Shown here: one piece after another, positions 11,516 to 51,360 of the stretch
Layout of the letters: every line of letters starts with the position of its first letter
Numbering within the stretch: position 1 is the first letter of the stretch
NCBI GenBank assembly: GCA_963730605.1
Contig: CAVSSM010000002.1
Span: 256,001-320,000 of the forward strand
Source: an uncultured Chlamydiae bacterium
GTDB lineage: Bacteria > Chlamydiota > Chlamydiia > Chlamydiales > SM23-39
DNA: 64,000 bases
Direction: 5' to 3'
Translations under genes and position numbers: made by a program
The notes under the pieces: generated by a model
The model's database searches: none
What the model saw: the letters and a program-made list of their open reading frames with translations, nothing else
What the model was told of the DNA's origin: nothing

Positions 11516-11569
11516 TTATTCTTCCTTTGCATAACGACCAATCATAGTAACATATTGGTTGAAAAAATT

Positions 11570-11770
11570 TATACTCAAAGAATATGAAGAATCGGGAATA
11601 TAGCAAGGCTGCGGACACTTGAAAAAGCTCGGGGGTTCGAGCTTTTTCTAAGGAAAGCAGCCCAGAATTTGAGCCAGGCTTTGCCGGCGCCGGGTCCGGG
11701 GTCCCCAAAAACGCATCGTTTTTGGGGTGGGGCGCCGCCAGAAACCGATTCTTCATGTTATTTGAGTATA
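11570..11770. mobile_element. TA-flanked MITE-like element
   Basis: TATACTCAAAGAATATGAAGAATCGG ... CCGATTCTTCATGTTATTTGAGTATA TIRs. Confidence 0.85.
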
Positions 11771-12015
11771 AGTGGTAAATTAGGCAAGCTGAATAGAGAG
11801 GGAACTTTTTGAAGAAATTCACATGCAACAGGGAAACTCTTTCTTTTCGAGAGGAGCCAGAAGATCTCCTGTACCACGAAAGAGGTTGTGTTCCATTTCA
11901 GATCTTTGATCCTTTCTAACGTCTCAATGGCATCCGCATGATGCTCATCGTCAGCGTTAAACACCGCGACCATGAACCCAGTATCGATGAGAATCTTTTT
12001 TGAGAATGCGAACAC
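11758..12015 (-). pseudogene. PIN-domain (VapC-like) toxin, truncated at the MITE
   Basis: ILIDTG..D..H and TTSFVVQE motifs; only 85 aa, stop codon lies in the MITE TIR. Confidence 0.75.
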
Positions 12016-12024
12016 GGAACAGCA

Positions 12025-12276
12025 CTACTCTTTGTGCAAGAGATCTTTGTAATTCGTGCTGGTAACTCCCGTTCCCGTCAGACATCCTATTAAGCCGGAT
12101 TTCTCCAAAATAGAGATTTTGGACATCGCAGTCCTTTTAGGTCTGCGACGCATTACCGCCTTCTTTTTTATCCTTCGAGCAGCTCTTTTCTTCGATCGAA
12201 CCGCTCTCTTCTTATTACGCACAGTCATATCATGCTCACTTACAATGATTATTCGAGAAAAGCTCTCAGCCCTCAA
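12025..12276 (-). CDS. Small Arg/Lys-rich protein, probable antitoxin partner
   Basis: Immediately upstream of the PIN gene on the same strand. Confidence 0.5.
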   Translation of the reverse strand: MRAESFSRIIIVSEHDMTVRNKKRAVRSKKRAARRIKKKAVMRRRPKRTAMSKISILEKSGLIGCLTGTGVTSTNYKDLLHKE

Positions 12277-12361
12277 CGGGCATTATTTCCATGAGACTGC
12301 CTATCATAGCAGGCAGCAACAACAAATGGCACTCTAAAATGGGAGCGTCTGCCATTTGGAA

Positions 12362-13013
12362 TCAAAAAACCTCCAAATCAAGAACATCCAACTTCCCATC
12401 ACCGTTTAGATCAGTAGCAGACAAAGTGCCCTTGTTTTCATGAATTTCATAGAGCAATTTAAGATATTTACCAGCCACTAAACGCGGCAGCTCATCTTTG
12501 CGCTCTATCCCGTACCATTCATAGATCCCTTTGCTACCTTTTGAAGAGTTGCATCGACGACATGCCCAAACATGATTTTCAGCCGTATCCGTGCCATTTT
12601 TCACACGAGGAACAAGATGATCCCATGAGAGATTCTCTGTCGATCTACAATATTCGCAGCAAATTCCATCACATGACATCTGCATTTTTAGTTCTCTCAG
12701 AGCTGCGCTCATTTTTATCTCTCCAGACGCGAGCATTGTCATCTTGCTCATGATGAATCCATGACCATGAATCCCGGAGGATGCAGCAATGATCTTTGCG
12801 TACTGGTAAAAGATCAGATCTTTGATATACCGCGCCCGCTTAGGTTGTGTGAATTTTGACAGCAGATTTTTGGCTCCAGTAGCATTGCGGAGATCGAGTC
12901 CAACTTGCACAATGTTAACGAGATCGAGCAATGCGCTGGAGCAAAAAAGATGCTCAACAAAATTCACTCAAGATAAGCGGGCGCGGTATAGTTTTAACGG
13001 CTGAAGGAGGCAT
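12362..13013 (-). CDS. HNH endonuclease-family protein, 5' end interrupted by a MITE
   Basis: CEYC..DHLVPR...N...CRRCNSSKG; removing 12826-12990 (leaving one TA) gives MPPSAVKTIKDLIFYQYAK. Confidence 0.85.
12826..12990. mobile_element. TA-flanked MITE-like element
   Basis: TATACCGCGCCCGCTTA..GTGAATTTTG / CAAAATTCAC..TAAGCGGGCGCGGTATA TIRs. Confidence 0.9.
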
Positions 13014-13612
13014 TATCCCCTGACAGTTACGTTCAATTTTTTCGGCTGGTTCGTCTCTTGGTCAACTAGCGTAATGGTAAAAGTAGGTTGATATTCATTC
13101 ACAGGGACGAAAAGCAGCTTATTGAAATGAGAATGGCGAAAAATAATCTGATCGCGCGCTACTTTCGCACTGAAATCATTATCTAAAGCTTCATTTGCTT
13201 TAGCAGATTTTACACCATCAACAATGGCTGGAATAGCTAAAGGCCATAGAAAAAGAGCCCCGACACCGTAACCAGTTGCCCTTCCAACAGTCGATGTGTG
13301 AACTTTATCCGCTACCTCTTCTGGTGTAGCAAAGGACACACTAACTCGATTTAAAGCAAAGAGGTAATCTTTTTCAGAGCTATTTTGAATGTATAACTGA
13401 ACGGGCTGATATCCTTCTGCAATTACATCTCTATCCAAATACTTTTTACAGTCAGCCTTGTTGAAGGCCTTAGCTCCGATAAAAACGCTGCCTGCGCCAA
13501 TGATGATTTCAGAAGCAAGGCTGTTTAATGGTGATGCACTGTAGCTTGCGCATCCTGACAGAAGGAGAAGCATTGCTAAAACTGCAATAAAAGGCAGAGA
13601 AATTTTACTCAT
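13013..13612 (-). CDS. Hypothetical lipoprotein
   Basis: Lipobox LLSGC and a GGAG RBS. Confidence 0.8.
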   Translation of the reverse strand: MSKISLPFIAVLAMLLLLSGCASYSASPLNSLASEIIIGAGSVFIGAKAFNKADCKKYLDRDVIAEGYQPVQLYIQNSSEKDYLFALNRVSVSFATPEEVADKVHTSTVGRATGYGVGALFLWPLAIPAIVDGVKSAKANEALDNDFSAKVARDQIIFRHSHFNKLLFVPVNEYQPTFTITLVDQETNQPKKLNVTVRG

Positions 13613-13872
13613 AAGACTCCATAAAATAATGAAAGACTGAATGATTCTAAACAAAAACAAAAAAGATGATCAACTCAAATAAATTATTTCCATTTGAACT
13701 ATTTCCATTTTTGAAACAGTTGCTTCCAGGATGAGTTTCTGGCTTATTTTTTAAATGCCTTGAGAGCAGAAGGACCTGGGACGCCCTCTCGCAGCGCTCC
13801 GCGCTTGCTGCCGGGCCGGCGATCTAGCGCCCTGCAGGGCGCTTCGATTCGAGTCCTCCACGGAAGCCGCGC

Positions 13873-13923
13873 AGGGGGCGGGCGGACTAGAACCGCCGAA
13901 GACCGAAGTCGGGGGATTTACAG
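13873..13923 (-). other. Diverged att copy: 3' half of tRNA-Tyr
   Basis: 44/51 identical to 24311-24361, ending at the anticodon loop; adjacent to a degenerate copy of the 184-bp unit (about 13780-13872). Confidence 0.85.
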
Positions 13924-14175
13924 ACGGATGGAATACAATCTCAACCAATGATTATTCACGCTTATCAACTTGAAAATCAGAATATTGATCACAATAAAGA
14001 GTTGACGACTATTGTTAAAAATTGGGTAAAATAATCTATTGCTGTCCCATTTTTGTCCCACCAGCCCCTGACCTCTCCCTCTTGCTAGGCCCAAGATTCC
14101 AAAGGAAATTTTGCGCATAGCATTTACACAAAAACTCTAAATGAACTAGACTAATGACTAGTCAGACCAGACCAG

Positions 14176-14478
14176 GTGAATATGAAAACTAAACCTTGCT
14201 CAAGAAGAAGGCTTAGCCATCGCAAGAGACATAAAAAATGGCAAGTCCAGGAAGCAAAATCAAAGTTTTCTCAATTGATCAAGGAAACAGCTTCTTCTGG
14301 ATACCAAACAATTACAAAAAATGGCGAAACTGTTGCCTATGTTGTTTCTAAAGAAGACTTTGAGATGTATTTGAAGCCTCAGAAATCGCTTCTTGAAGTT
14401 TTAGACCAATGCCCGTACCCAGAAGTCGATTTCGATACCAAGCGAAGAACGGATACGATTAGGGAAATCGATTTATGA
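14176..14478 (+). CDS. Phd/YefM-family antitoxin
   Basis: WQVQEAKSKFSQLI...QTITKNG; overlaps the toxin start. Confidence 0.9.
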   Translation: MNMKTKPCSRRRLSHRKRHKKWQVQEAKSKFSQLIKETASSGYQTITKNGETVAYVVSKEDFEMYLKPQKSLLEVLDQCPYPEVDFDTKRRTDTIREIDL

Positions 14479-14915
14479 CCTATCTACTCGATACATGTAC
14501 GATTTCTACCCTGAGAAAGAAAGGAACTTCTGAAGGAAAGAAATTAAGAGAGTGGGTATCAAGGATGGAAGATCGTTTTTTTTTCATAAGCGTTTTGACA
14601 ATTGGCGAACTCCTATTCGGAATTTCCAAATTGAGTGAAAAAGAAGAGAAAATAAAAAACGCTTTGCAAAATTGGCTCGTGGGCGACCTCATCCCTAGTT
14701 TCGGAAATAGAATTTTGTCTATCGATCAACAAATTTGCTCTATTTGGGGTGATATGACCGCTCAGGCGGCTAAAAAGGGAGTTATTCTCCCAATGGGCGA
14801 TGCCCTAATTGCTGCAACTGCGATCAAATATGATCTGATTGTCATCACCCAAAACACCAAACACTTCAAATCTTCTGGAGCTCGTCTTTTCGATCCTCTC
14901 ATCCACCATCCATAG
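14475..14915 (+). CDS. vapC: VapC PIN toxin
   Basis: YLLDT, SVLTIGEL, DALIAATA and TQNTKHF motifs. Confidence 0.92.
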   Translation: MTYLLDTCTISTLRKKGTSEGKKLREWVSRMEDRFFFISVLTIGELLFGISKLSEKEEKIKNALQNWLVGDLIPSFGNRILSIDQQICSIWGDMTAQAAKKGVILPMGDALIAATAIKYDLIVITQNTKHFKSSGARLFDPLIHHP

Positions 14916-15041
14916 AAGTTCATGCGGAATTTGATACGCTTGAAGAGGACTTTCTGGCCGCGCTTGTCCACGATTTAGTAGAGGATGTTCAGCCTTCACC
15001 AGCGATCGGACAGGTTCTTTTGAGCGATCTCAAGATCGGTC

Positions 15042-15305
15042 TTATTCATCAACCCTTTCGTTCAGAGGATCAGTGCCCTCGGCGATCGACAGCATCTCAT
15101 AAACCTTCTCGCTGATGGCCTCTATTCCGTAGGCCCATGAGCGGAGAATATCTTCTTTTTCATCATCGGTCTTCGTCTGGAACCAATCCCACGTATCTTT
15201 TGGACGAAGAGGGCGAAAACGTCCTTCACCAGCAAATAGCTCCTGTTCTAGAAGATTTTGTAGCAGCACGGCAAGCCTGCCGAGATCCTCAATTCGTTGT
15301 CGCAT
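15042..15305 (-). CDS. Hypothetical protein
   Basis: 87-aa ORF with an AGGAG RBS. Confidence 0.55.
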   Translation of the reverse strand: MRQRIEDLGRLAVLLQNLLEQELFAGEGRFRPLRPKDTWDWFQTKTDDEKEDILRSWAYGIEAISEKVYEMLSIAEGTDPLNERVDE

Positions 15306-15452
15306 CGTCGTCGACTCCTAGGGTGATAACGTTAATGCGTGGATTCACGAGTTCCCTCGTTTTAGCGTCTTTATGGGACCTTTCCAAGCGGGTTTCAATT
15401 TTCTTGTGGCCTCATTCTTCGCAATGGGCATAAGACCGTCCCAATGGTCTTT

Positions 15453-16715
15453 ATATTTGTTCAGGGGGTATAGCAGGGCTGGCTAAAAATGGTGGGGGCC
15501 GACGAACCTGTTTTCCAGGCGCCTAGGGCTTCCACAAGATAATCTAAACATTTCTTCCCCTGATGCTTCAGGGTAGTTACAACAGTATTGGTCCTCTCGA
15601 TGAACCGATCGCCACGTTCGCTTTTGGAACCGTAGCTAACTCTACGGGTAATCACGATCCCTCTTAGATCCCTTTCAGCCTGATTGTTCGTTGGCTCTAC
15701 GCCATCTCGAGTGGCAAAAATCCACAGATTTTGCGCCCTCCGCAAGAGAGCTCGGGCGAACCGTTTGAGGGAGGCGCTATGCTTGCCTTTCGTAGATGCA
15801 ACCAGTAGCCCATATGCAAAATCATCTCGGTACTGCCTGCTTTTGCGTCTAAATGAACGCCGGCTTCTCCGTTTTTCCCGGTAGTCTCGCCAGAGTTCGA
15901 AGATCGTTTTGAGATATTCTAGCATCACTTGGCCCCACTCGCCATCGAGACCTGCTCGCTCGGCAAAACGCTTTATGTCCCGTTTGAGATGAGCAAGACA
16001 GAACTGATGTGGCCACTGGAAGCGATAAATTGCTAACCTGTCAGTAACGAAGGCTACACGTTTTGTTGCAGTAGTGCCTAATAGGGCATCTCTGCATTCG
16101 GCTCCTCTCCCTTCCTGGATCTTGTACACGGCCCCGGATGCAGTGGACATAATCCATACAAATGCTCGTTTTCCCCAGCATTTCCAACCTGTTTCTTCAA
16201 CATGTTTTGTTTCGTTACTACCATGCACCTGCTTTTCGATCTCTTCGTACGATGGCTTAAGAGCGGCTGACATACGATTTTCTATATTGCTCTGGGTTCC
16301 AACTGCTGCTCGAAGATCGAGCCCTTCTTGCAGGATGCTTAATGCAATCCGACGGCTTAGTCGGCATGTACCAGTCAGGAACCCCATGAAGGCAGACAGT
16401 CGTGTTCCAAATGCCGATGGGCCGACATGGCTGGGAAGTGGGGCTACCCCATCTTTTTTCTTGGGGGCATCATTCTTGCCTTTTTGGTCCGTTGAGGGTG
16501 GCTTGGAACTGTTTTTGGAATTGAGGTTGATCTGTTCTTTCAAACGGGCATTTTCTTCACGTAGTCTGGAGTTTTCGACCTTGAGCGAGGCCACCTCACT
16601 ACGGAGCAATCGAATTTCTGTGAGCAGCTCTTCGTAACTGGCGTTCATGCTGTTCTAGCTTAGCATGTTGGCGAATATTCACCTAAAAAATTTGCTATAC
16701 CCCCTGAACAAATAC
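15453..16715 (-). mobile_element. IS66-family (single-ORF type) element, transposase 15461-16648, probably internally deleted
   Basis: 22-bp TIR TATTTGTTCAGGGGGTATAGCA; NSKNSSKPPS, QFCLAHLKR and PTNNQAERDLR motifs; Cys-rich zinc-binding segment missing. Confidence 0.88.
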
Positions 16716-16860
16716 AGACGACCAGTTAAAACTCTAGGCTTGGTAGAGGGGTACATATCGAGGATGTGTTGGATATTACTGTCCCATGAGAGATCCCTTG
16801 GGAGCTTAAAATATACCGAATTTTATCGCGAATTTCGGCCCGTTTTTTCATAGGGAATTT

Positions 16861-17412
16861 GGGGGCGGCCAGACGCCCTCGCGCTGAGCTGCTTCGCAGC
16901 TCATGCTGCCGGGCCGGCGATCCCCCGCGGTTTTTGCAGAGCAAAAAACATCGACGGGGGATTCGAGTCCGCCACGCGACACGCGCAGGCGTGTCGCTCG
17001 CCCCCAAAAAGCAAAAAGCCCCGCGTGAAGCGGGGCTGCTTTTTGGGGGCGGCCAGACGCCCTCGCGCTGAGCTGCTTCGCAGCTCATGCTGCCGGGCCG
17101 GCGATCCCCCGCGGTTTTTGCAGAGCAAAAAACATCGACGGGGGATTCGAGTCCGCCACGCGACACGCGCAGGCGTGTCGCTCGCCCCCAAAAAGCAAAA
17201 AGCCCCGCGTGAAGCGGGGCTGCTTTTTGGGGGCGGCCAGACGCCCTCGCGCTGAGCTGCTTCGCAGCTCATGCTGCCGGGCCGGCGATCCCCCGCGGTT
17301 TTTGCAGAGCAAAAAACATCGACGGGGGATTCGAGTCCGCCACGCGACACGCGCAGGCGTGTCGCTCGCCCCCAAAAAGCAAAAAGCCCCGCGTGAAGCG
17401 GGGCTGCTTTTT
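16861..17412 (-). repeat. Three tandem 184-bp tRNA-linked repeats
   Basis: Units start at 16861, 17045 and 17229; each has the last 15 nt of tRNA-Tyr and a GC hairpin flanked by A/T tracts. Confidence 0.95.
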
Positions 17413-17465
17413 GGGGGCGGCCAGACTCGAACTGGCGGAGACCGAAGTCGGGGGATTTACAGTCC
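17412..17465 (-). other. att copy: 3' half of tRNA-Tyr
   Basis: 54 bp identical to 24311-24364. Confidence 0.95.
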
Positions 17466-17719
17466 GCCTAAATCCAATTTAACCCCATCCCTACCAATAC
17501 ATATCAACATAACAATCAGAATCTTGCAGCATTTCTTGGGCTGTTAAAAATTGTTTTGAATTGGTAGCTATTGAACCCTGCTGTCCCACCAATGCCCCGT
17601 GACGCTATTAAAGAAGACTTGAATAACAAGCCCTTTTACGTTACCCTTATTGAAGAAAACTTGAATAACGCTCGATTTTCCAAGCCGTTATTCTCGGATG
17701 CTTGAATAAGGAGCTCTGC

Positions 17720-18853
17720 ATGAGAAGCGGCAGATACATTACACAGCCCAACCAGTATAAAGCATTCATTCCAACAGACCTTCCTCCCGAGCCCCCCATC
17801 CGGATAGAAGGAGAAATGCACGGCCTCCTCACCGACGCCAACATTGCCATTGGAAAACTAGACACCATGGGCTATTTGGCACCGAATCTAAGCCACATCA
17901 TCGCCATGTACGTCCGCAAAGAAGCACTCCTCAGCTCTCAAATCGAAGGAACGCAAGCCTCCTTCGAGGATATTTTTGAATACGAAAGCCAAATCCCCGT
18001 GAAAAACGTGAATGACGTCGAAGAGGTCGTCAATTACATCAAAGCTCTGAACCACGGTATGCAAAGACTCAACGACTTCCCTATGAGCATACGTCTCATT
18101 AAAGAAATTCACGCCATCCTCTTGGAAGGAGTGCGCGGAAAAGACAAAACACCGGGCGAATTCAAAAAAAGCCAAAATTGGATTGGTCCAGCCGGGTCCA
18201 CTCCAAGCACAGCTTCTTTCATTCCGCCACCACCAAAAGAGGCGATGGATGCCATGGGACAACTTGAGCTTTTTCTACACAAAAATTCCAGTATTCCACT
18301 ACTGATCAGCTGTGCGCTTATCCATTACCAGTTTGAGACAATCCATCCCTTTCTCGATGGCAACGGCAGGTTGGGCAGGCTCCTAATCACCTTCTATCTC
18401 TATTGGAAAAAGGCTCTTCAACATCCTACGCTCTACCTCAGTTACTATTTCAAAATACATCGCCAAGAGTACTACGACCGCCTCAACCTCGTCCGCGCCA
18501 AAGGCGATTATGAGCAATGGGTCACCTTCTTTCTCCAAGGCGTCATTTGGACTTCCAACTCCGCCCTACAAACCATCAAAACCGCCCTCCAGCTCCAAGA
18601 AACCCACAAAAAGCGACTCATCACAGCCAAACTCTCTACCCCCTACGCTATTGCCCTCCTTGATTATCTCTTTGAAAAACCCCACCTTTCCATAAAAGAC
18701 GCAGCCACCCACCTCAAAACCTCTTATCAAAGCGCAAAAACGCTCATGCAGCAACTTGTCTCTCTCGAAATCCTCAAAGAAATCACTGGTAAACGCCGCG
18801 ACAAACGCTATAGCTATTGGGAATATTTAGACCTGCTGTCAGAAGGGACATGA
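17720..18853 (+). CDS. Fic-family protein with a C-terminal HTH-like region
   Basis: HPFLDGNGRLGR motif, EALLSSQIEG, AAGGAG RBS. Confidence 0.93.
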   Translation: MRSGRYITQPNQYKAFIPTDLPPEPPIRIEGEMHGLLTDANIAIGKLDTMGYLAPNLSHIIAMYVRKEALLSSQIEGTQASFEDIFEYESQIPVKNVNDVEEVVNYIKALNHGMQRLNDFPMSIRLIKEIHAILLEGVRGKDKTPGEFKKSQNWIGPAGSTPSTASFIPPPPKEAMDAMGQLELFLHKNSSIPLLISCALIHYQFETIHPFLDGNGRLGRLLITFYLYWKKALQHPTLYLSYYFKIHRQEYYDRLNLVRAKGDYEQWVTFFLQGVIWTSNSALQTIKTALQLQETHKKRLITAKLSTPYAIALLDYLFEKPHLSIKDAATHLKTSYQSAKTLMQQLVSLEILKEITGKRRDKRYSYWEYLDLLSEGT

Positions 18854-19015
18854 ACAGGTTTCTTTTGCTGTCCAATGAATCACAAACTCCGTTTTCCTAG
18901 CTTAGCAGCGCGAAGGCAGCCGATCCGGTTGCTAGTCCGGCATAGCTAAGAGCGCGCGCAGGCGTGTCGCTCGCCCCAAAAAGCAAAAAGCCCCGCGTGA
19001 AGCGGGGCTGCTTTT

Positions 19016-19066
19016 TGGGGGCGGCCAGACTCGAACTGGCGGAGACCGAAGTCGGGGGATTTACAG
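19016..19066 (-). other. att copy (attR of the integrase island): 3' half of tRNA-Tyr
   Basis: 51 bp identical to 24311-24361; followed on the minus strand by the terminator hairpin of the 184-bp unit (about 18955-19015). Confidence 0.95.
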
Positions 19067-19580
19067 GCGCGTTACATTCTGAGTTTGCCAACACGAGGAA
19101 AATGATAGCAATAAGAGAATTAAAAGTTTAGGTTTCTCTGATGTTTGCTGATTTTTGCTATCCATTCTGATTTGAGCGTATCCCTTGCACTAAAATTGCA
19201 CCGCGGCTCTCGATAGGTCTGCTGATTCCTTCAATGGGAGCCAAGGAGAATGAGACAATCAGAAGACATAAATCTGAAATTGAAGCAGATCACGAGGATT
19301 TTCAGTCCTCCTAAGCCGCTTCCGGCCGTTGCCTTCAAATTCCTTCAATCAACCAAAACAGCCAAATTCTATAGGAGAAGTCGGATGGAAAGCGAGAAAT
19401 TCCGATAATCGAAGCTGATCCCGAACTAGTAAAGGGAATTGGCAATTCCGGCATTTTTCCGGGAAGAACAGCCTTTTCCTTAATCCTAGGGATATAAGAG
19501 GTCACTTTTCATTGATGCACCATTTGAAAAAAAAGTTTATCAGTATACATAAATTACCAATATTGGTAATGATGTATTGC

Positions 19581-19952
19581 ATGCATGATACCTGCCTAAT
19601 GAGACCGTTGCTCTGGATAGGTTCCTCTAAGAAGGATCTCAAGGAAATGCCTGTAGGCGTGCGAAAGGAAATTGGCCACTCGTTGAGAGAACTTCAGAAG
19701 GGAAGAGATCCGGGGAACACCAAGCCTCTTAAGCATCTTCATGAACCAATATCAGAAGTGGTCGTAGACGAACGAGAAGGGACTTTTAGGGCGGCCTACA
19801 CTGTGGAGTTCAAGAACGTCGTAGCTGTATTGCACGTGTTCCATAAAAAAAGCAAATCGGGCATTGCTACGCCGAAGAAGGAGATCGATTTGATTCTCCA
19901 AAGGCTGAAGCAGGCGAGAGTCGATTATCATGAATGGAAGAGGGAAAAATGA
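19581..19952 (+). CDS. RelE/HigB (Gp49-like) toxin
   Basis: WIGSSKKDL...VLHVFHKKSKSGIATPKKEIDLI. Confidence 0.9.
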   Translation: MHDTCLMRPLLWIGSSKKDLKEMPVGVRKEIGHSLRELQKGRDPGNTKPLKHLHEPISEVVVDEREGTFRAAYTVEFKNVVAVLHVFHKKSKSGIATPKKEIDLILQRLKQARVDYHEWKREK

Positions 19953-20311
19953 AAGAAAAAGATTTTGTCACCACCGATAATGTTTTTGACGATCTCGGCT
20001 TAGATGATTCTGTCGAAATGATTACTCGATCAGACCTGATGTCGGAAGTTGTTAATCTTATCCGAAAAAGCGGTCTTAGCCAGAAGGAAATCGCTGGAAT
20101 TTTAGGGATTAGCGCTCCTAAAGTATCATCTCTTATGACTGGTAAAATCAATGATTTCAGCAACGACACCCTTTTGAACTACCTCACGTTGCTTGGCTGC
20201 AACATAGAGATCAAAGTTGTGCCTCAACGGAGAATATCCAAGTCGGTCAAAAGAGGAACAATGACGCTGCGAAAACAAAGAGTAAGACGACGAAGTAGGG
20301 CTAGTACCTGA
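19949..20311 (+). CDS. HigA-like XRE HTH antitoxin
   Basis: NVFDDLG...LSQKEIAGILGISAPKVS; ATGA overlap with the toxin. Confidence 0.9.
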   Translation: MKEKDFVTTDNVFDDLGLDDSVEMITRSDLMSEVVNLIRKSGLSQKEIAGILGISAPKVSSLMTGKINDFSNDTLLNYLTLLGCNIEIKVVPQRRISKSVKRGTMTLRKQRVRRRSRAST

Positions 20312-21507
20312 CCACAAAAGTTTTCATGGGTAGAGCCTCTTCATTTTCACTCGCGCATCTGGGATAGCAAATCCCCAAAGGATCTTTGCCCGTCTAGCAT
20401 TTCTATCTGATACATAAGCGGCCACCTCTCTACCGAGAACTTCTTTTGAGCCTATTCGCCTTTTGAGGCACTGACCGCCAAGAACAGAAATTTCAATCTC
20501 TGCCATGTTCAACCAACTTGCATGTTTTGGCGTATGGCGCACCTCTAATTTCTTAATGATCCTCCTGGCTTCTTCGGGCTCAAACGTCTCGTAGAGATTA
20601 GCCAGTCGATGCGTATTCAAATTGTCCATGACAACCCTAATTTTTTCTGCCTCGGGAAAATGTTTGTCCACCAGATCCTTCATGCACTCGGCAAAATCTT
20701 TTTTTGTTCTCTGGTCTGTGACTTTTATTTCCCGCCAGCCTCCCAAGGGCTGTACAAAAACAAAGAGGTTGCTTGTTCCATTCCTTTCGTACTCATAATC
20801 TCGGCGTTTGACTCTCCCTGGCACTGCGGCAATTGGCGCCAACACATCATCTACCAATTGGACTGGTGTTTCATCAAAACACACAACGGGTTTCTTTTCG
20901 TTCAGCGGCTCCTCATATAAATCTAAAACATCTTCCATCCGACAAATATACTCGTAATCCACTTCTGGAACACACCAACTCTTTACTTGCCATGGCTTTA
21001 TTTCGTTTTTTTTAATGTTCTGCGAACCGTTTCGTCCGATATGGAATCTGTCAACTCTAGCGTAATGCAACGATCCGCAAGTAGCTGCATTGTCCAGCAG
21101 GCGCGTCCTTCGGGCGCCTCGCTGCAAGCAAGCGCGATTAAATGGGCTTTAGCCTTTCCAACCATCTTCTCCGGTCTTCCGGATCGCGCTTTTTCATTGA
21201 GTGATTGTTGTAGCCCGTGTTCACAGTAGGCTTTTCTTGTATTGTAAACGCTCACCTCGCTGCACCGTAGCAAAGAGGCAATCTCTTTATCTGGTTTCTT
21301 CTCATCAGCGAATAACAGAGTTTGCGCTCTTCTGATAATCCGCGCGGATGACTTCCCTTTTCTAACAATGTCCTCGAGTTCGCTGCGCACCTCAACTGTG
21401 AGATGAACGGACCATTTTTTGTTCATAGCTGCCTCCAAATGAAAGGCATATATGGAACACTATTCAAACATTTTTTTAAAAACTTTAAAATCCTATGGTT
21501 TAGTTAA
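20302..21507 (-). mobile_element. IS630-family element; orfA 20998-21438 and orfB joined by a -1 frameshift; ends approximate
   Basis: HTH orfA; DDE orfB (DETP, DNLNTH, WLNMAEIE); A8 run at TLKKT/NEIKPW. Confidence 0.88.
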
Positions 21508-21680
21508 AGAGCCTCGCTTTGCGGCCTTGCATCCCAAGGCATTTCGCAGTAGCACAACTTGCTCTCTTTAACTCACACTATTTCAGACTGATAGGATTTA
21601 AATAAGACGACCGAATTTAATAGGTCAAAAGACAACCCTTTTCATTGAGAAGAACATCTCAAAAAAAAGAGTCGACGATT

Positions 21681-22910
21681 TTAAATGGGAGACTGTTTTT
21701 TGCCCCGCTTCGGCCTCCATCCGTGCCGCTTGTCAAATTGTGAGCATTCTTTTTTAATCAGTTTTTTAGTGCATGCTTTCTGTATTTCGGGGGCAGCTTC
21801 TTTCCATACGAGCACCCGAATGGAATCGTAAGTGCGCTGTTTTCTTTGTTCACGAGACAGTTTCAGCAGCTCCCGTTCAATTATGGATTGGACAAATTCC
21901 CTTGCCTCATTTTTTAGCTGCTGCGGCTTTTTAAGAACGGGCTCATTTAACATCTCCTCTTCAAGCAAGAGAACAAATCGCTGCACCAACCGCCATAGTT
22001 TATCTCGTGGCACTGGCGCCTTGCCCCAGTCCGCTCCAAAGGCGCTCAGAAACGACTGCAACTGCCATTGACAGCTAAGCTCATCGCAACGAATAAGATC
22101 ATTTGGGAGCGGTCCCACAGGCGTGGGCTTTATTTTGCTAAAATGGGCTATCCGGTCGAGCCAACTGAATGTAGATAACAATGAGCTATCTGTGGCTGCC
22201 TCCCAGTCCTTTTCCGTAGTCGTCCTAAGCAATACCGCGTACTCATCTTCTGGATATTGGATCTTTTGAATCACGCCAAACTTTATGTCGTGGTCAATCC
22301 TGTCTGCCCAATCATTCTTCCGGATCACTGCACTAATAAAGCTGTGTCCTAATTTATCATACAACAGACTCCCTTCCGGAGAATCAGGAAAAACTTCTGT
22401 CGGTTTTTCGACTCGGATAGGCGGCTCATCAAACGATAGACACTCTGCTACCACCCGAACCGTGGCAAAACCATCAAAAATCCTCTCATCACCGTATCTG
22501 GCAACCGAATCGCATACCTGCATAAAATCGTTACACACTCCGTGCCAAAACGAGCCCATAAAAATCAATTCGGGACGTTCACCCTTGAGATACGCTTTAT
22601 ACTCCTGTACGGCCTTGGCGCAAGGCCACCATCTGTTTACAGCAGCCTCTTCTAAAATGTTCACCTTTGACAGCAGCCAATCCATCATGCGCTGTTTACA
22701 AGCCTTCTGTTCCTGAGCCTCTTTCTCTACCGCCTTTGTTAAATCGGCACAGATTTTTGCACTGGGAGGACTCCTCTTAACCTTGTCCATCAATTTCGAT
22801 AGAAGGATTAAAAAGCCCGCTGGACTATCTGCCAATTCTAAAAGGTTAAGTGTGGGAAGAATTTGCTCTCGGAATCGATCAATTTGCACTTGTTTTACCG
22901 TTTTGCTCAT
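21681..22910 (-). CDS. Hypothetical protein downstream of the integrase
   Basis: About 410-aa ORF overlapping the integrase 3' end. Confidence 0.7.
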   Translation of the reverse strand: MSKTVKQVQIDRFREQILPTLNLLELADSPAGFLILLSKLMDKVKRSPPSAKICADLTKAVEKEAQEQKACKQRMMDWLLSKVNILEEAAVNRWWPCAKAVQEYKAYLKGERPELIFMGSFWHGVCNDFMQVCDSVARYGDERIFDGFATVRVVAECLSFDEPPIRVEKPTEVFPDSPEGSLLYDKLGHSFISAVIRKNDWADRIDHDIKFGVIQKIQYPEDEYAVLLRTTTEKDWEAATDSSLLSTFSWLDRIAHFSKIKPTPVGPLPNDLIRCDELSCQWQLQSFLSAFGADWGKAPVPRDKLWRLVQRFVLLLEEEMLNEPVLKKPQQLKNEAREFVQSIIERELLKLSREQRKQRTYDSIRVLVWKEAAPEIQKACTKKLIKKECSQFDKRHGWRPKRGKKQSPI

Positions 22911-23985
22911 CTGAAACCTCATCTAATAGATTGGCTTGGGTGCGTTCCATCACGTTAGCGATGTGTTTTTTGCTATAGTGACGGTAGCGGACGGTCATGC
23001 GCGGACTGCGGTGGCCGAGAATTTCCATTAGCTCGCCTTGGGAGGCACCGTTCATCGCCATGTGAGAGCAGGCTGTGTGGCGAAGGTCATGGAAGCGGAA
23101 GTCATCGATGTTGGCCTCTTTGGCGGCCTTGATGAAGGCGTGGCGGATGTCCGCGACGGGTTTGTGAGCGCCGAGGCGGCGGGCGGGGAAGACGTAGCCC
23201 TTGCGTTCCTCGCTGTAGGTTTGGCACTCGCGGAAAGTGCGTTCGATTTCATTGATGATGGGGACGATGCGGCTGTCGCCGTTCTTGGTTTCGTGAAGGA
23301 TGACTTGGCGTTGTTCGAAATCGATGTCGACCCATTTGAGGTTGGCGATCTCGCCAAAGCGCATGCCGCTGAGGAGTGCGAGCTTGACGATGGAGTAGAG
23401 GTAGGGATGGGGTGAACGCTTGCACGCGTCGAGGAGGGCGGCGATCTCTTCTTTGTCGAGGAAGCGGCTGCGTCCTTTCGATTCGCTCGGCTTGGAGACT
23501 TTGGTGACGGGATTCTCTTCGATCCACTGCCATTCTTTGACGGCGATGGTGAAGGCTTTGGAAATGGCGGCCAAGTAACGGTTGATGGTGCTGCCGCTTC
23601 GCTTGGTCTCTCGATGGGTTGTGCCCGCGAGGAGTTTGTCTCGCCCTGCAACGATATGGGAGGGCAGGATGTCGGCAAGGAGGAAATGGCCGATTTCATT
23701 GCGCCACCACATGAGGAGCCGCTTTTGCTTGGCGGCGTACTTTTCGTAACGAGGGCACCACTCGGTGATAAAGCGGTCGATCAGCTCGGCGACGTTGTGG
23801 CGCTTGGCCTCGGCCGTGCGGAAATGGCGGCCGTCGCGGATGGCCGACTCGACGTCTTGAATCCATTTCTTGGCGAGCGTCTTGGTGCGGAAGGAGGCGC
23901 GCTGCGGTTTGCTGCCTTTGATGCGCACTTCGGCATGGAAGCTCACTTCCCCGTCACTTTTCACCACTTCTCTAATCGAACCCAT
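22879..23985 (-). CDS. int: Tyrosine recombinase/phage-type integrase
   Basis: GMRFGEI, TKNG, FHDLRHT and LGH...TVRY catalytic residues; next to the tRNA 3' end. Confidence 0.95.
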   Translation of the reverse strand: MGSIREVVKSDGEVSFHAEVRIKGSKPQRASFRTKTLAKKWIQDVESAIRDGRHFRTAEAKRHNVAELIDRFITEWCPRYEKYAAKQKRLLMWWRNEIGHFLLADILPSHIVAGRDKLLAGTTHRETKRSGSTINRYLAAISKAFTIAVKEWQWIEENPVTKVSKPSESKGRSRFLDKEEIAALLDACKRSPHPYLYSIVKLALLSGMRFGEIANLKWVDIDFEQRQVILHETKNGDSRIVPIINEIERTFRECQTYSEERKGYVFPARRLGAHKPVADIRHAFIKAAKEANIDDFRFHDLRHTACSHMAMNGASQGELMEILGHRSPRMTVRYRHYSKKHIANVMERTQANLLDEVSDEQNGKTSAN

Positions 23986-24310
23986 ATGACTCCAACCTTA
24001 AAGGAATGAATATAGCTCCAACTGTATTAAAGAGCAACAGGGGGATGGGCAATCCCCAATCAACCAAGCTAAACAAGACTAATAACCAACGAGATACGAA
24101 GTGCGTAAAATGCACAATACGCAATCCTTACGCAAATGAAGAAAAAAATGCGGAGAGATTGCGATCTGAAAAAGACATAAATGAGGTTGCGGGCGATGCG
24201 ATGCAGTTTTATGCGGTTTCGTTTGGCCGAGTGCGTAAAATTTGCGTAACGGAAGTGCCGGTGGAGGCACTTTTTAGGTCGGATTTTTTGGGTAATTTTG
24301 TCTATGAGAA

Positions 24311-24392
24311 TGGGGGCGGCCAGACTCGAACTGGCGGAGACCGAAGTCGGGGGATTTACAGTCCCCTGCAATTGCCGCTATGCGACACCCCC
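24311..24392 (-). tRNA. tRNA-Tyr(GTA)
   Basis: GGGGGTG acceptor, GGGGA-CTGTAAA-TCCCC anticodon arm, long variable arm, TTCGAGT loop. Confidence 0.95.
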
Positions 24393-50088: not shown

Positions 50089-51360
50089 GTGGTGTATGGC
50101 ACGATCGACGGGTCTGGCACTTTTCGAAATATTTGTGCAGCCGTAGCTATTACGGTCGCAAAAGTAGCAAGCTTTGTCGCGGGTGGAATTATCCCTATAA
50201 CATTCATGTTTGGAGGGACTCTCGTCTTGGGATCGGCCGCCGTCCATACCATTCCGAAAGCCCTTCAAGAATGTAGGGGCGCCGAGAACGATCGTGAAAT
50301 TGCGATGCGGTCACTGGATCCCGAAGAGAGGAAACAGCAGTTGGAACTGGCTGACGAAGGAATCATCGCCGCGGCGCTCGGCTTGACCAACCAATCCCTT
50401 TATGGTGTGATGGGCGCCGGAATGATTCAGGGCGGAGTTATCACGCTGATGAGTCCGGTCGGAGCCCATTTATTTGGATTTGCTCCTGTTGTTACCGGCG
50501 GAACCGCTGCTGCCTCCGGAGGGGCGCTCGGAGGGGTTTATGCAGTGCGCGGCGCAGTAGTGTTAGGAAAATCCGTTTATAACCTCCTTTATTTGAACAA
50601 ATTTCAAAAGGACTTTAAAGAGTCGCTGAAATTGAGAGGCGATGCAAGGCTTGACCAAACGGTAGATACCGCTATCGAGAAGATCAAAAAGATCGGAACC
50701 TTGCCGAACGCCTTGGGACGGCGAGTTGGAAACAACGCTCCGACACTTCCCGATCCAAGCGCAACTCTCGAGGACAAAATCCGTTATTTAGAAGCTGTGG
50801 ACAAGGGAATCCAGGAGAGAAAACTCCAGGAAGTACTGGGCGTGATCATCGGAGTCGCGATGATCCTCGGCGGCATTGCCGCCATTGCGGCGGTCTTCGT
50901 CTGCGCACCTGCCACCATCGCCATCATCGCATTGGTTTCCGCGGTCTTCTTCGTCGCGATGGAAAGCGTCTACGGAACCTATGATTCAAGCTTCCTTTTC
51001 GGCAAATTGAGAGACAAACTCTACACGCCGTCGGATGAAATCGTAGCACTCAAAAACGCCTACGGGCGCAACACACGCCTTCTCTACACGCCGTCGGATG
51101 AAATCGTAGCACTCAAAAACGCCTACGGGCGCAACACACGCCTTCTCTACACGCCGTCGGATGAAATCGTAGCACTCAAAAACGCCTACGGGCGCAACAC
51201 ACGCCTTAAAGGCCTCGATTTGGCAATTCCCAAAAGACTTGAAGTGTCGGCTCTAAATCAACGCGAACGCGCTCAAGGAGCGAGAATCTCCAAGGGCGGC
51301 GCTCACCTGATTTCAACGAGTGTCCAACCCGGACAAAACGGTCTCAAAAAGACTGCTTAG
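50089..51360 (+). CDS. Hypothetical membrane protein with a 3x21-aa repeat
   Basis: Multiple hydrophobic segments; true start possibly near 50022. Confidence 0.8.
   Translation: MVYGTIDGSGTFRNICAAVAITVAKVASFVAGGIIPITFMFGGTLVLGSAAVHTIPKALQECRGAENDREIAMRSLDPEERKQQLELADEGIIAAALGLTNQSLYGVMGAGMIQGGVITLMSPVGAHLFGFAPVVTGGTAAASGGALGGVYAVRGAVVLGKSVYNLLYLNKFQKDFKESLKLRGDARLDQTVDTAIEKIKKIGTLPNALGRRVGNNAPTLPDPSATLEDKIRYLEAVDKGIQERKLQEVLGVIIGVAMILGGIAAIAAVFVCAPATIAIIALVSAVFFVAMESVYGTYDSSFLFGKLRDKLYTPSDEIVALKNAYGRNTRLLYTPSDEIVALKNAYGRNTRLLYTPSDEIVALKNAYGRNTRLKGLDLAIPKRLEVSALNQRERAQGARISKGGAHLISTSVQPGQNGLKKTA
51019..51207 (+). repeat. 3 x 63-bp perfect coding tandem repeat
   Basis: LYTPSDEIVALKNAYGRNTRL x3. 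Confidence 0.95.

Follow-up and report, generated by a model that had tools for sequence, protein, structure and literature searches.

Behind the tRNA-Tyr gene of an uncultured Chlamydiae bacterium lies a stack of three units, probably the product of satellite-like elements of three or more tyrosine-integrase clades that integrated site-specifically one after another, with later deletions leaving the cargo of the far ends. The stack occupies positions 13780–24392 of the window, the whole stretch of 64,000 nucleotides analysed here, which is a part of contig CAVSSM010000002.1 (C2) of GenBank assembly GCA_963730605.1; the assembly (genome G000) comprises 2.2 Mb in 12 contigs and is 83% complete. 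Most likely, the stack reflects an ordinary accretion mechanism, a known process, and not an integron-like cassette system.

Tandem copies of the tRNA-Tyr 3' half

The target, an intact tRNA-Tyr(GTA) gene (24311–24392, minus strand), is situated behind tRNA-Thr, and its 3' half forms the attachment (att) core of unit 1. Three more copies of the half lie on the same strand: 19016–19066 (51 nt, 100% identity, E 1e-20), beginning at the anticodon loop; 17412–17465 (54 nt, 100%, E 3e-22), reaching 3 nt past the loop; and 13874–13923 (50 nt, 88%, E 6e-12). The E-values were computed against the 2.2-Mb genome, and no fourth copy was found anywhere in the 83%-complete assembly. Identity starts exactly at the CTGTAAA loop for the copies ending at 19066 and 13923; in that ending at 17465 it takes in 3 nt of the stem. 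The resulting unit 1, unit 2 and unit 3 are 5295, 1604 and 3539 nt long. ARAGORN places a second tRNA-Tyr at 17412–17487, a false call on an att scar. The Rfam scan of 11–26 kb yielded only two tRNAs above the gathering score and no attC-like match.

The outermost copy carries a compensated T-stem, GGCGG/CCGCC, which is the allele of the intact tRNA in genome G001 and other relatives, and shares its flanks with G001 (76% over 289 nt); hence it is taken to be the oldest copy, the displaced original. The three inner 3' halves have one common rare T-stem allele. The putP–ttcA–SEC-C–tRNA–integrase neighbourhood recurs in one Chlamydiae metagenome-assembled genome record (TtcA 81%, PutP 70%).

A first-pass annotation had described the three 3' halves, broken off at the anticodon loop, and which genes the units contain; all of this was confirmed by sequence matching and by Pfam and NCBIfam searches. 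It had not noticed the 184-nt repeat, the arm repeats at the boundaries, the terminase fragment of unit 3 or the island genes outside the outermost copy, all treated below. Its view of the copies as att scars of anticodon-loop events by tyrosine integrases, stacked by tandem accretion, with no integrase in units 2 and 3, also agrees with the present data.

Arm motifs and integrase clades

Most half copies in relatives are preceded by paired 7–8-nt direct repeats 11 nt apart, at about −137/−126 from the loop (below, the far arm), and integrase-bearing elements have the same repeat pair, again 11 nt apart, at about +60/+71 after the CCA (the near arm). At half copies in apparent secondary sites the upstream pair is absent. 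The chance rate of such a pair in a random slot is 1.7% for 6/8 matches and 0.2% for 7/8. The att sites of tyrosine integrases have a known anatomy with arm-type binding sites, and because of this anatomy we infer that the repeat pairs are integrase arm-binding sites.

An exact TGGGACA pair together with the core pattern is present in 19 of 401 genomes of the order; the reversed control yields 0. In a tree of 45 integrases (30 best loci and 15 collected earlier, six rows having no automatic label, and kin not being independent), the TGGGACA rows, six in number, group together in a starred clade (97/86); a second, separate starred clade (98/91) unites six TTACGCA rows, among them the integrase of the window. 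At the level of sequence, this shows that the arm motif follows the integrase clade. The arm-type code offers a simple route for assigning integrase-less scars to a parent clade.

Structure of the units

A picture of a parent is given by locus L125 (contig C5 of G424), an intact TGGGACA element of 10 kb with arms at both ends. Its order is integrase, a 379-aa open reading frame (ORF), an 85-aa ORF, a primase (DUF3987/RepB), an ORF, terS, an 86-aa ORF, terL, cargo and the far arm. The 85-aa ORF, situated in the regulator slot, has no match in Pfam, PHROG or NCBIfam, and there is no capsid match in the element. Further TGGGACA members with integrase and primase were found in G341, G102, G401 and G230. 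Satellite-like elements, with integrase, primase and in some cases terS and terL, are seen at L125, L178, L180, L182 and L183, and in G000 itself at C7:31.9–56.0 kb and C11:90.9–97.2 kb; no capsid or tail match was obtained in the satellite-like chlamydial elements.

Unit 3 has TGGGACA pairs on both sides. The far arm (14043–14060, minus strand) lies at −137/−126 and is common to G001 (76%). The near arm (16780–16797, minus) is degenerate, at +62 from the CCA of the last tRNA-linked repeat and displaced by 552 nt. Between them, all on the minus strand, are an 87-aa ORF (15042–15305), 55% identical to the 86-aa gene just before terL in L125 (E 3e-21 genome-wide), and 37 N-terminal codons of a broken TerL (14939–15049), 57% identical to TerL of L125, with two stops (E 6e-5 genome-wide) and cut off by the VapBC module. 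Since the 87-aa gene is followed by the broken terL in the order of L125, unit 3 is, judging by gene order and similarity, a decayed remnant of a larger integrase-bearing element. The first-pass annotation had named such decay as what would overturn its cassette model; unit 3 shows such decay, and unit 2 is linked to a parent by arm type only. The cargo of unit 3 is a Phd-VapC (Phd-PIN) pair identified with Pfam and NCBIfam (14176–14915, plus strand), with 95% DNA identity to G001, versus 80.6% for the neighbouring core genes. An IS66-family element (15454–16714, minus) with 22-nt inverted ends also lies in unit 3 and has partial and miniature copies elsewhere in the genome; its ends are unusual, and a 250-nt miniature derivative is seen at C1:211228–211484 of G000.

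Unit 2 contains a single gene, assigned by Pfam and NCBIfam to SoFic-type Fic (Fic_N, Fic and a C-terminal HTH domain; 17720–18853, plus strand). The catalytic loop HPFLDGNGRLGR is intact, and the closest solved structures are those of SoFic. The protein also has a built-in SSQIEG motif (S-xxx-E-G), which we take to be self-inhibitory. This makes the gene a self-inhibited SoFic type and weakens the label "toxin"; likewise, a separate coupled antitoxin gene, as in type II toxin–antitoxin (TA) pairs, was sought for this Fic and not found. Thus, the first-pass suggestion that units 2 and 3 each have their own toxin or TA cargo fits the Phd-VapC pair of unit 3, but not the Fic. Three spaced repeats of the TTATTCAAG/CTTGAATAA type are situated at 17602–17710 upstream of fic and are kept in all Fic homologue loci; they are likely an autoregulatory operator for the HTH domain. 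The far arm (17582–17598, minus) is a TGGGACA-type pair with one degenerate repeat, and no clear near arm is seen behind the truncated repeat copy at 18954–19015.

Unit 1 begins with a near arm formed by a TTACGCA pair 11 nt apart (24232–24249, minus strand; +61/+72 from the CCA), followed by an inverted pair near 24102–24134. The tyrosine integrase (22879–23985, minus; 368 aa) is intact, with the R-K-H-R-H-Y motifs, and is 92% identical to that of an 8.2-kb two-armed element in G001. The next slot holds a 413-aa orphan ORF (21681–22922, minus) that has no family in Pfam, PHROG or NCBIfam; atlas hits at 0.90, to unnamed clusters of low recognition, were set aside. Next come an IS630 (20301–21486, minus), which has six near-identical copies in the genome and is a recent, independent insertion, and a HigBA-like pair (19599–20311, plus) consisting of a Gp49/DUF891 toxin (19599–19952) and an HTH_37 antitoxin (19949–20311), both recognised by Pfam and NCBIfam. 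The far arm (19185–19201, minus; −137/−126) is a GTGCAA pair, the motif of the integrases and elements at tRNA-Met and tRNA-Lys of this genome and not of the integrase of unit 1. In G001, the relative with 90% identity carries TTACGCA on either side, and its integrase is followed by a primase; unit 1 has no primase. Given this mismatched far arm and missing primase, the sequence points to unit 1 being a deleted fusion of at least two elements. What the first-pass annotation took for one integrase island is thus itself a fusion with a foreign far arm. Mismatched arms are seen also in G001 (L001) and G002 (L004).

In G001, the relative of unit 1 lies 3'-terminally in an rlmD-like gene, the end of which reads GGGACTGTAA. 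As the G000 orthologue ends differently, this is likely a secondary-site insertion, and the integrase family appears to be mobile. Elements of the tRNA-Tyr type away from the tRNA are found at L002:4295 (G001) and L013:3328 (G017), in look-alikes of GGGACTGTAA with a 3'-terminal position in rlmD-like and NAD-kinase genes.

An integron-like platform, where the resident integrase shuffles downstream cassettes, might be suggested by an intact integrase next to two small units that lack one and carry TA-type cargo, and the first-pass annotation indeed regarded units 2 and 3 as minimal non-autonomous cassettes of such an array. We consider this very improbable. The integrase scores 51.8 bits with the integron-integrase model TIGR02249, against a cut-off of 265, and so there is no IntI. 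The attC sites of integrons have the core motif RYYYAAC..GTTRRRY, and no attC-like pair of this form is present in 13.7–24.4 kb, the boundaries being tRNA halves with arm repeats. By their arm motifs, units 2 and 3 go with another clade than the resident integrase, which argues against cassette recombination by that enzyme. Finally, the cargo genes are oriented against the tRNA and have promoters of their own.

Beyond the last half copy, probable older island cargo extends over 11758–13660 (minus strand): a lipoprotein-like ORF, an HNH gene, and a small ORF with a truncated PIN gene. Homologues of the lipoprotein-like ORF and HNH are found inside tRNA-Tyr units of relatives (L071, L067). Two palindromic elements resembling miniature inverted-repeat transposable elements, at 11560–11780 and 12826–12990, occur in many copies genome-wide; one of them supplies what look like the initial 50 codons of the HNH ORF. 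Elsewhere in the window, at 51019–51207, there is an identical tandem repeat of 63 nt in three copies, an in-frame length.

The 184-nt repeat and the inner copies

A 184-nt sequence is repeated 3.1 times with 100% identity at 16858–17426. Three identical tRNA-linked repeats (TLRs), RttR-like, thus occupy 16858–17411 (minus strand), between the tRNA half at 17412 and the near arm of unit 3. A truncated copy lies at 18954–19015 (minus), so that the half at 19016 shares a further ∼62 nt with the repeat (113 nt at 99%), and an older, eroded one at 13780–13873 (minus). The number of copies rests on the assembly, the public contigs being too short and shallow to span the stretch. Each unit ends in the last 15–17 nt of the tRNA and holds antisense acceptor and T-arm strands split by a hairpin; the folding z of the repeat is −7. 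Weak Rfam matches were dismissed as chance, with no family at the gathering score.

The repeat agrees with the definition of TLRs (PMC8144298). A counterpart in that source is the 178-bp repeat of E. coli tyrT, present in 3.14 copies, with RttR and without a known function. Here as there, a duplicate of the tRNA 3' end, beginning with the T loop, closes the unit; an antisense copy of this end lies inside it together with several hairpins, and about 3.1 copies follow tRNA-Tyr. Unlike the E. coli TLRs, to which its sequence is unrelated save for the layout, the 184-nt repeat is interleaved with att sites. Its family occurs behind long-arm tRNAs (Tyr, Ser, Leu), and behind tRNA-Tyr in many relatives. 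In G000, relatives of the repeat are found three times behind tRNA-Ser(GGA) and also behind Ser(GCT) and Leu(CAA), every one fitted to the tRNA that it follows, at C2:404.7–405.2 kb, C10:27.8 kb, C1:443 kb and C2:134.9 kb. The antisense T-stem tracks the adjacent allele: among 15 scored copies, in which kin are not independent, 52 of 75 letters agree, the shuffle mean being 42 and this level being reached in 7 of 10000 shuffles. In unit 3, L068 and L096, a repeat separates the tRNA half from the near arm.

Could the two identical inner copies result from local duplication, gene conversion or an assembly error around the 184-nt repeat? The common rare T-stem allele of the three inner halves and the ∼62 nt of downstream repeat shared by the copies at 19016 and 17412 do indicate that homogenisation between copies probably occurred. 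However, each copy has its own upstream arm, the junction of Fic, arm and core is homologous in G085 and G058, and public contigs cover the region near-identically (28–30 of 30 bins in runs X1–X3, at low depth and with no single piece across the stretch). This makes such an origin of the copies most improbable. Among the short contigs of four of the nine listed runs (X1, X2, X3 and X5; depth ∼1–4), there was no unit-skipping joint and no circle junction, at a depth too low to reveal circles or empty sites.

Related loci

In 25 of 102 genomes of the family the tRNA-Tyr 3' part is matched at least two times (in a few of these cases a contig end may have split a single gene), so the att-bounded variation at this tRNA that the first-pass annotation had called for is common. 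Genome G341, from another family, shows the same layout at tRNA-Tyr, with one integrase element and two integrase-less units. A second stack, again with this layout but with decayed integrases, is present in G000 at tRNA-Met (C7:195–218 kb), with three half copies, one intact and several broken integrases, and comparable islands of G000 are situated at tRNA-Met, Asn, Lys and Thr. Hence tRNA-Tyr is a hot spot across the group, and the stack pattern is real and general. The tRNA-Asn island of G000 contains intact terS–terL, a helicase, HigBA and ankyrin-type cargo.

A tyrosine integrase is carried by five of 26 units bounded by two copies (23 in relatives and three in the window); several of the 26 have mismatched arms. 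Thirty integrase-less units were collected in relatives, from genomes with several copies or the TGGGACA pattern; their lengths, 0.9–10 kb with the median of 2.4 kb, come from a set biased to short units on one contig. A TA pair is recognisable in 12 of the 30; adding a weak HEPN pair, an antitoxin without partner and a Fic by itself brings the number to 15. The cargo of the rest is Schlafen, hydrolase, ankyrin, U-box or unknown genes. TA cargo is therefore common but not defining for tRNA-Tyr units.

The gene of unit 2 has Fic matches in 31 of 400 genomes. In six of 15 loci examined Fic abuts a TGGGACA arm, followed in three of these by the tRNA-Tyr core. Among the Fic units, the likeness goes no further than the stop codon of Fic; the near sides are mutually unrelated and different in every genome, as expected from independent deletions. 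An integrase-bearing parent of the Fic unit was not found in 11 further loci.

The same tRNA-Tyr is also targeted by serine-integrase elements (L005:17212–18753, L059:1586–3478, L022, L067, L092), whose integrase gene runs into the tRNA 3' half on the opposite strand. L023 (G022:C1) has two copies of the complete tRNA-Thr/tRNA-Tyr pair, separated by 12 kb.

Origin of the stack

The favoured history, integration of elements of several clades with later deletions, would have proceeded in rounds. A newcomer would cross over in the anticodon loop, restore the tRNA and push the older residents outward, giving an age order from the oldest at 13923 to the youngest at 24361. Deletions would then remove the integrases and replication genes and spare the far-end cargo, TA pairs and Fic; the TA genes beside the far arm are likely kept because their loss is costly. 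Between rounds, tRNA-linked repeats added at the tRNA 3' end would push the near arms off the core, and therefore excision would probably be disabled at attL. Any movement of units 2 and 3 would now have to occur in cis, together with a neighbour, as cis-mobilizable elements (CIMEs).

Several observations weigh against this history. The Fic gene with its promoter and far arm is 89.8% identical over 1416 nt to that of G085, a member of another genus, and Fic with the arm is 84–90% identical across genera and into family f7; with core genes at ∼66%, this part of unit 2 appears to have moved recently. No backbone remnant is seen in unit 2, and no TerS remnant was found in unit 3. No integrase was found in the DNA fetched around the six arm-linked Fic loci. 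Of 19 relative units examined, four integrase-less ones (L062b, L068, L096, L121) keep a far arm and also a clear near TGGGACA arm, and L138 has Fic alone between two arms at tRNA-Leu, although its far core is missing.

An alternative is that the small TGGGACA units are non-autonomous mini-elements, which lost the integrase once, then spread, trans-mobilised by cognate integrases of full satellites and carrying Fic or TA cargo between families. The shortness of the integrase-less units, which far outnumber intact TGGGACA elements, agrees with this scheme, and only six TGGGACA-clade integrases are among the best matches in 401 genomes. Two-armed minimal units do exist, L121 (1.6 kb) and the Fic-only L138 at tRNA-Leu being examples, and both Fic-arm units and hydrolase-TA units recur across families. 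In the window, however, unit 2 lacks a near arm and that of unit 3 is degenerate and displaced; a TGGGACA-clade integrase was not found in the 83%-complete assembly (best match 53%); the differing near sides of the Fic units fit independent deletions; and the set of units is biased to short ones fitting one contig. On balance, we regard the mini-element scheme as unlikely, but worth keeping in view. An extended scheme seems equally doubtful: an order-wide satellite-like family in environmental chlamydiae, its clades coded by arms, would have two-armed integrase-less derivatives, trans-mobilised as one- or two-gene Fic or TA cassettes at tRNA-Tyr and tRNA-Leu, and TLRs would lock the older residents by displacing near arms.

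Comparison with described systems

Islander uses the signature of a tDNA plus its fragment to find islands, 2083 of 3919 being anticodon-centred (PMC4383910). [quoted passage not shown] The stack resembles it in decay that leaves an att-bounded element devoid of genes for integration or transfer, in new integration at the restored gene end and, as in ICESt1/ICESt3-type tandems, in distantly related integrases sharing one target. Units 2 and 3 are indeed bounded by att copies of one target and have no integrase or transfer genes. Unlike ICE-derived CIMEs, the putative parents in the window are small satellite-like elements and not conjugative ICEs. Also unlike CIMEs, several scars are fusions with mismatched arms, and probably not all keep working attL and attR: far arms are present, but the near arm is degenerate and displaced in unit 3 and missing in unit 2. 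[quoted passage not shown]

L125 has the integrase, primase-replicase and terS of satellites of the phage-inducible chromosomal island (PICI) type (PMC10085698), and like them is ∼10 kb long, with a small regulator-sized ORF, variable cargo after terS, and no tail or lysis genes detected. Unlike PICIs, L125 also carries terL; no capsid or AlpA match was found in it, and several TGGGACA elements differ from PICI-type satellites in having no terminase. The string "chlamyd" does not occur in PMC10085698.

The first-pass annotation knew of no such description for Chlamydiae. For islands as such there are descriptions: Protochlamydia has tRNA-linked islands with integrase, terL and decaying mobility genes, namely Pam100G (PMC548262) and, in Pr. 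naegleriophila, PnaK_GI2 and PnaD_GI1/GI4 (PMC5010888). They share with the window the adjacency to tRNA genes, integrases, the terminase large subunit and pseudogenised mobility genes, but in the consulted parts of these papers they are described singly, and neither a tRNA-Tyr hot spot nor arm typing nor a tandem stack with att boundaries is reported. Our literature searches gave no report of a chlamydial tRNA-Tyr stack or of chlamydial satellites; the supplementary island tables of PMC5010888 could bear on the stack.

A chlamydial site-specific integrase with mapped att arms, and with a secondary gene-end site in a relative, could become a genetic tool for organisms that lack one. As for the biology of the group, intracellular chlamydiae, long thought to be poor in mobile DNA, show brisk movement of small integrative elements at tRNA-Tyr, and the transfer of TA and Fic genes between families outpaces the divergence of core genes.

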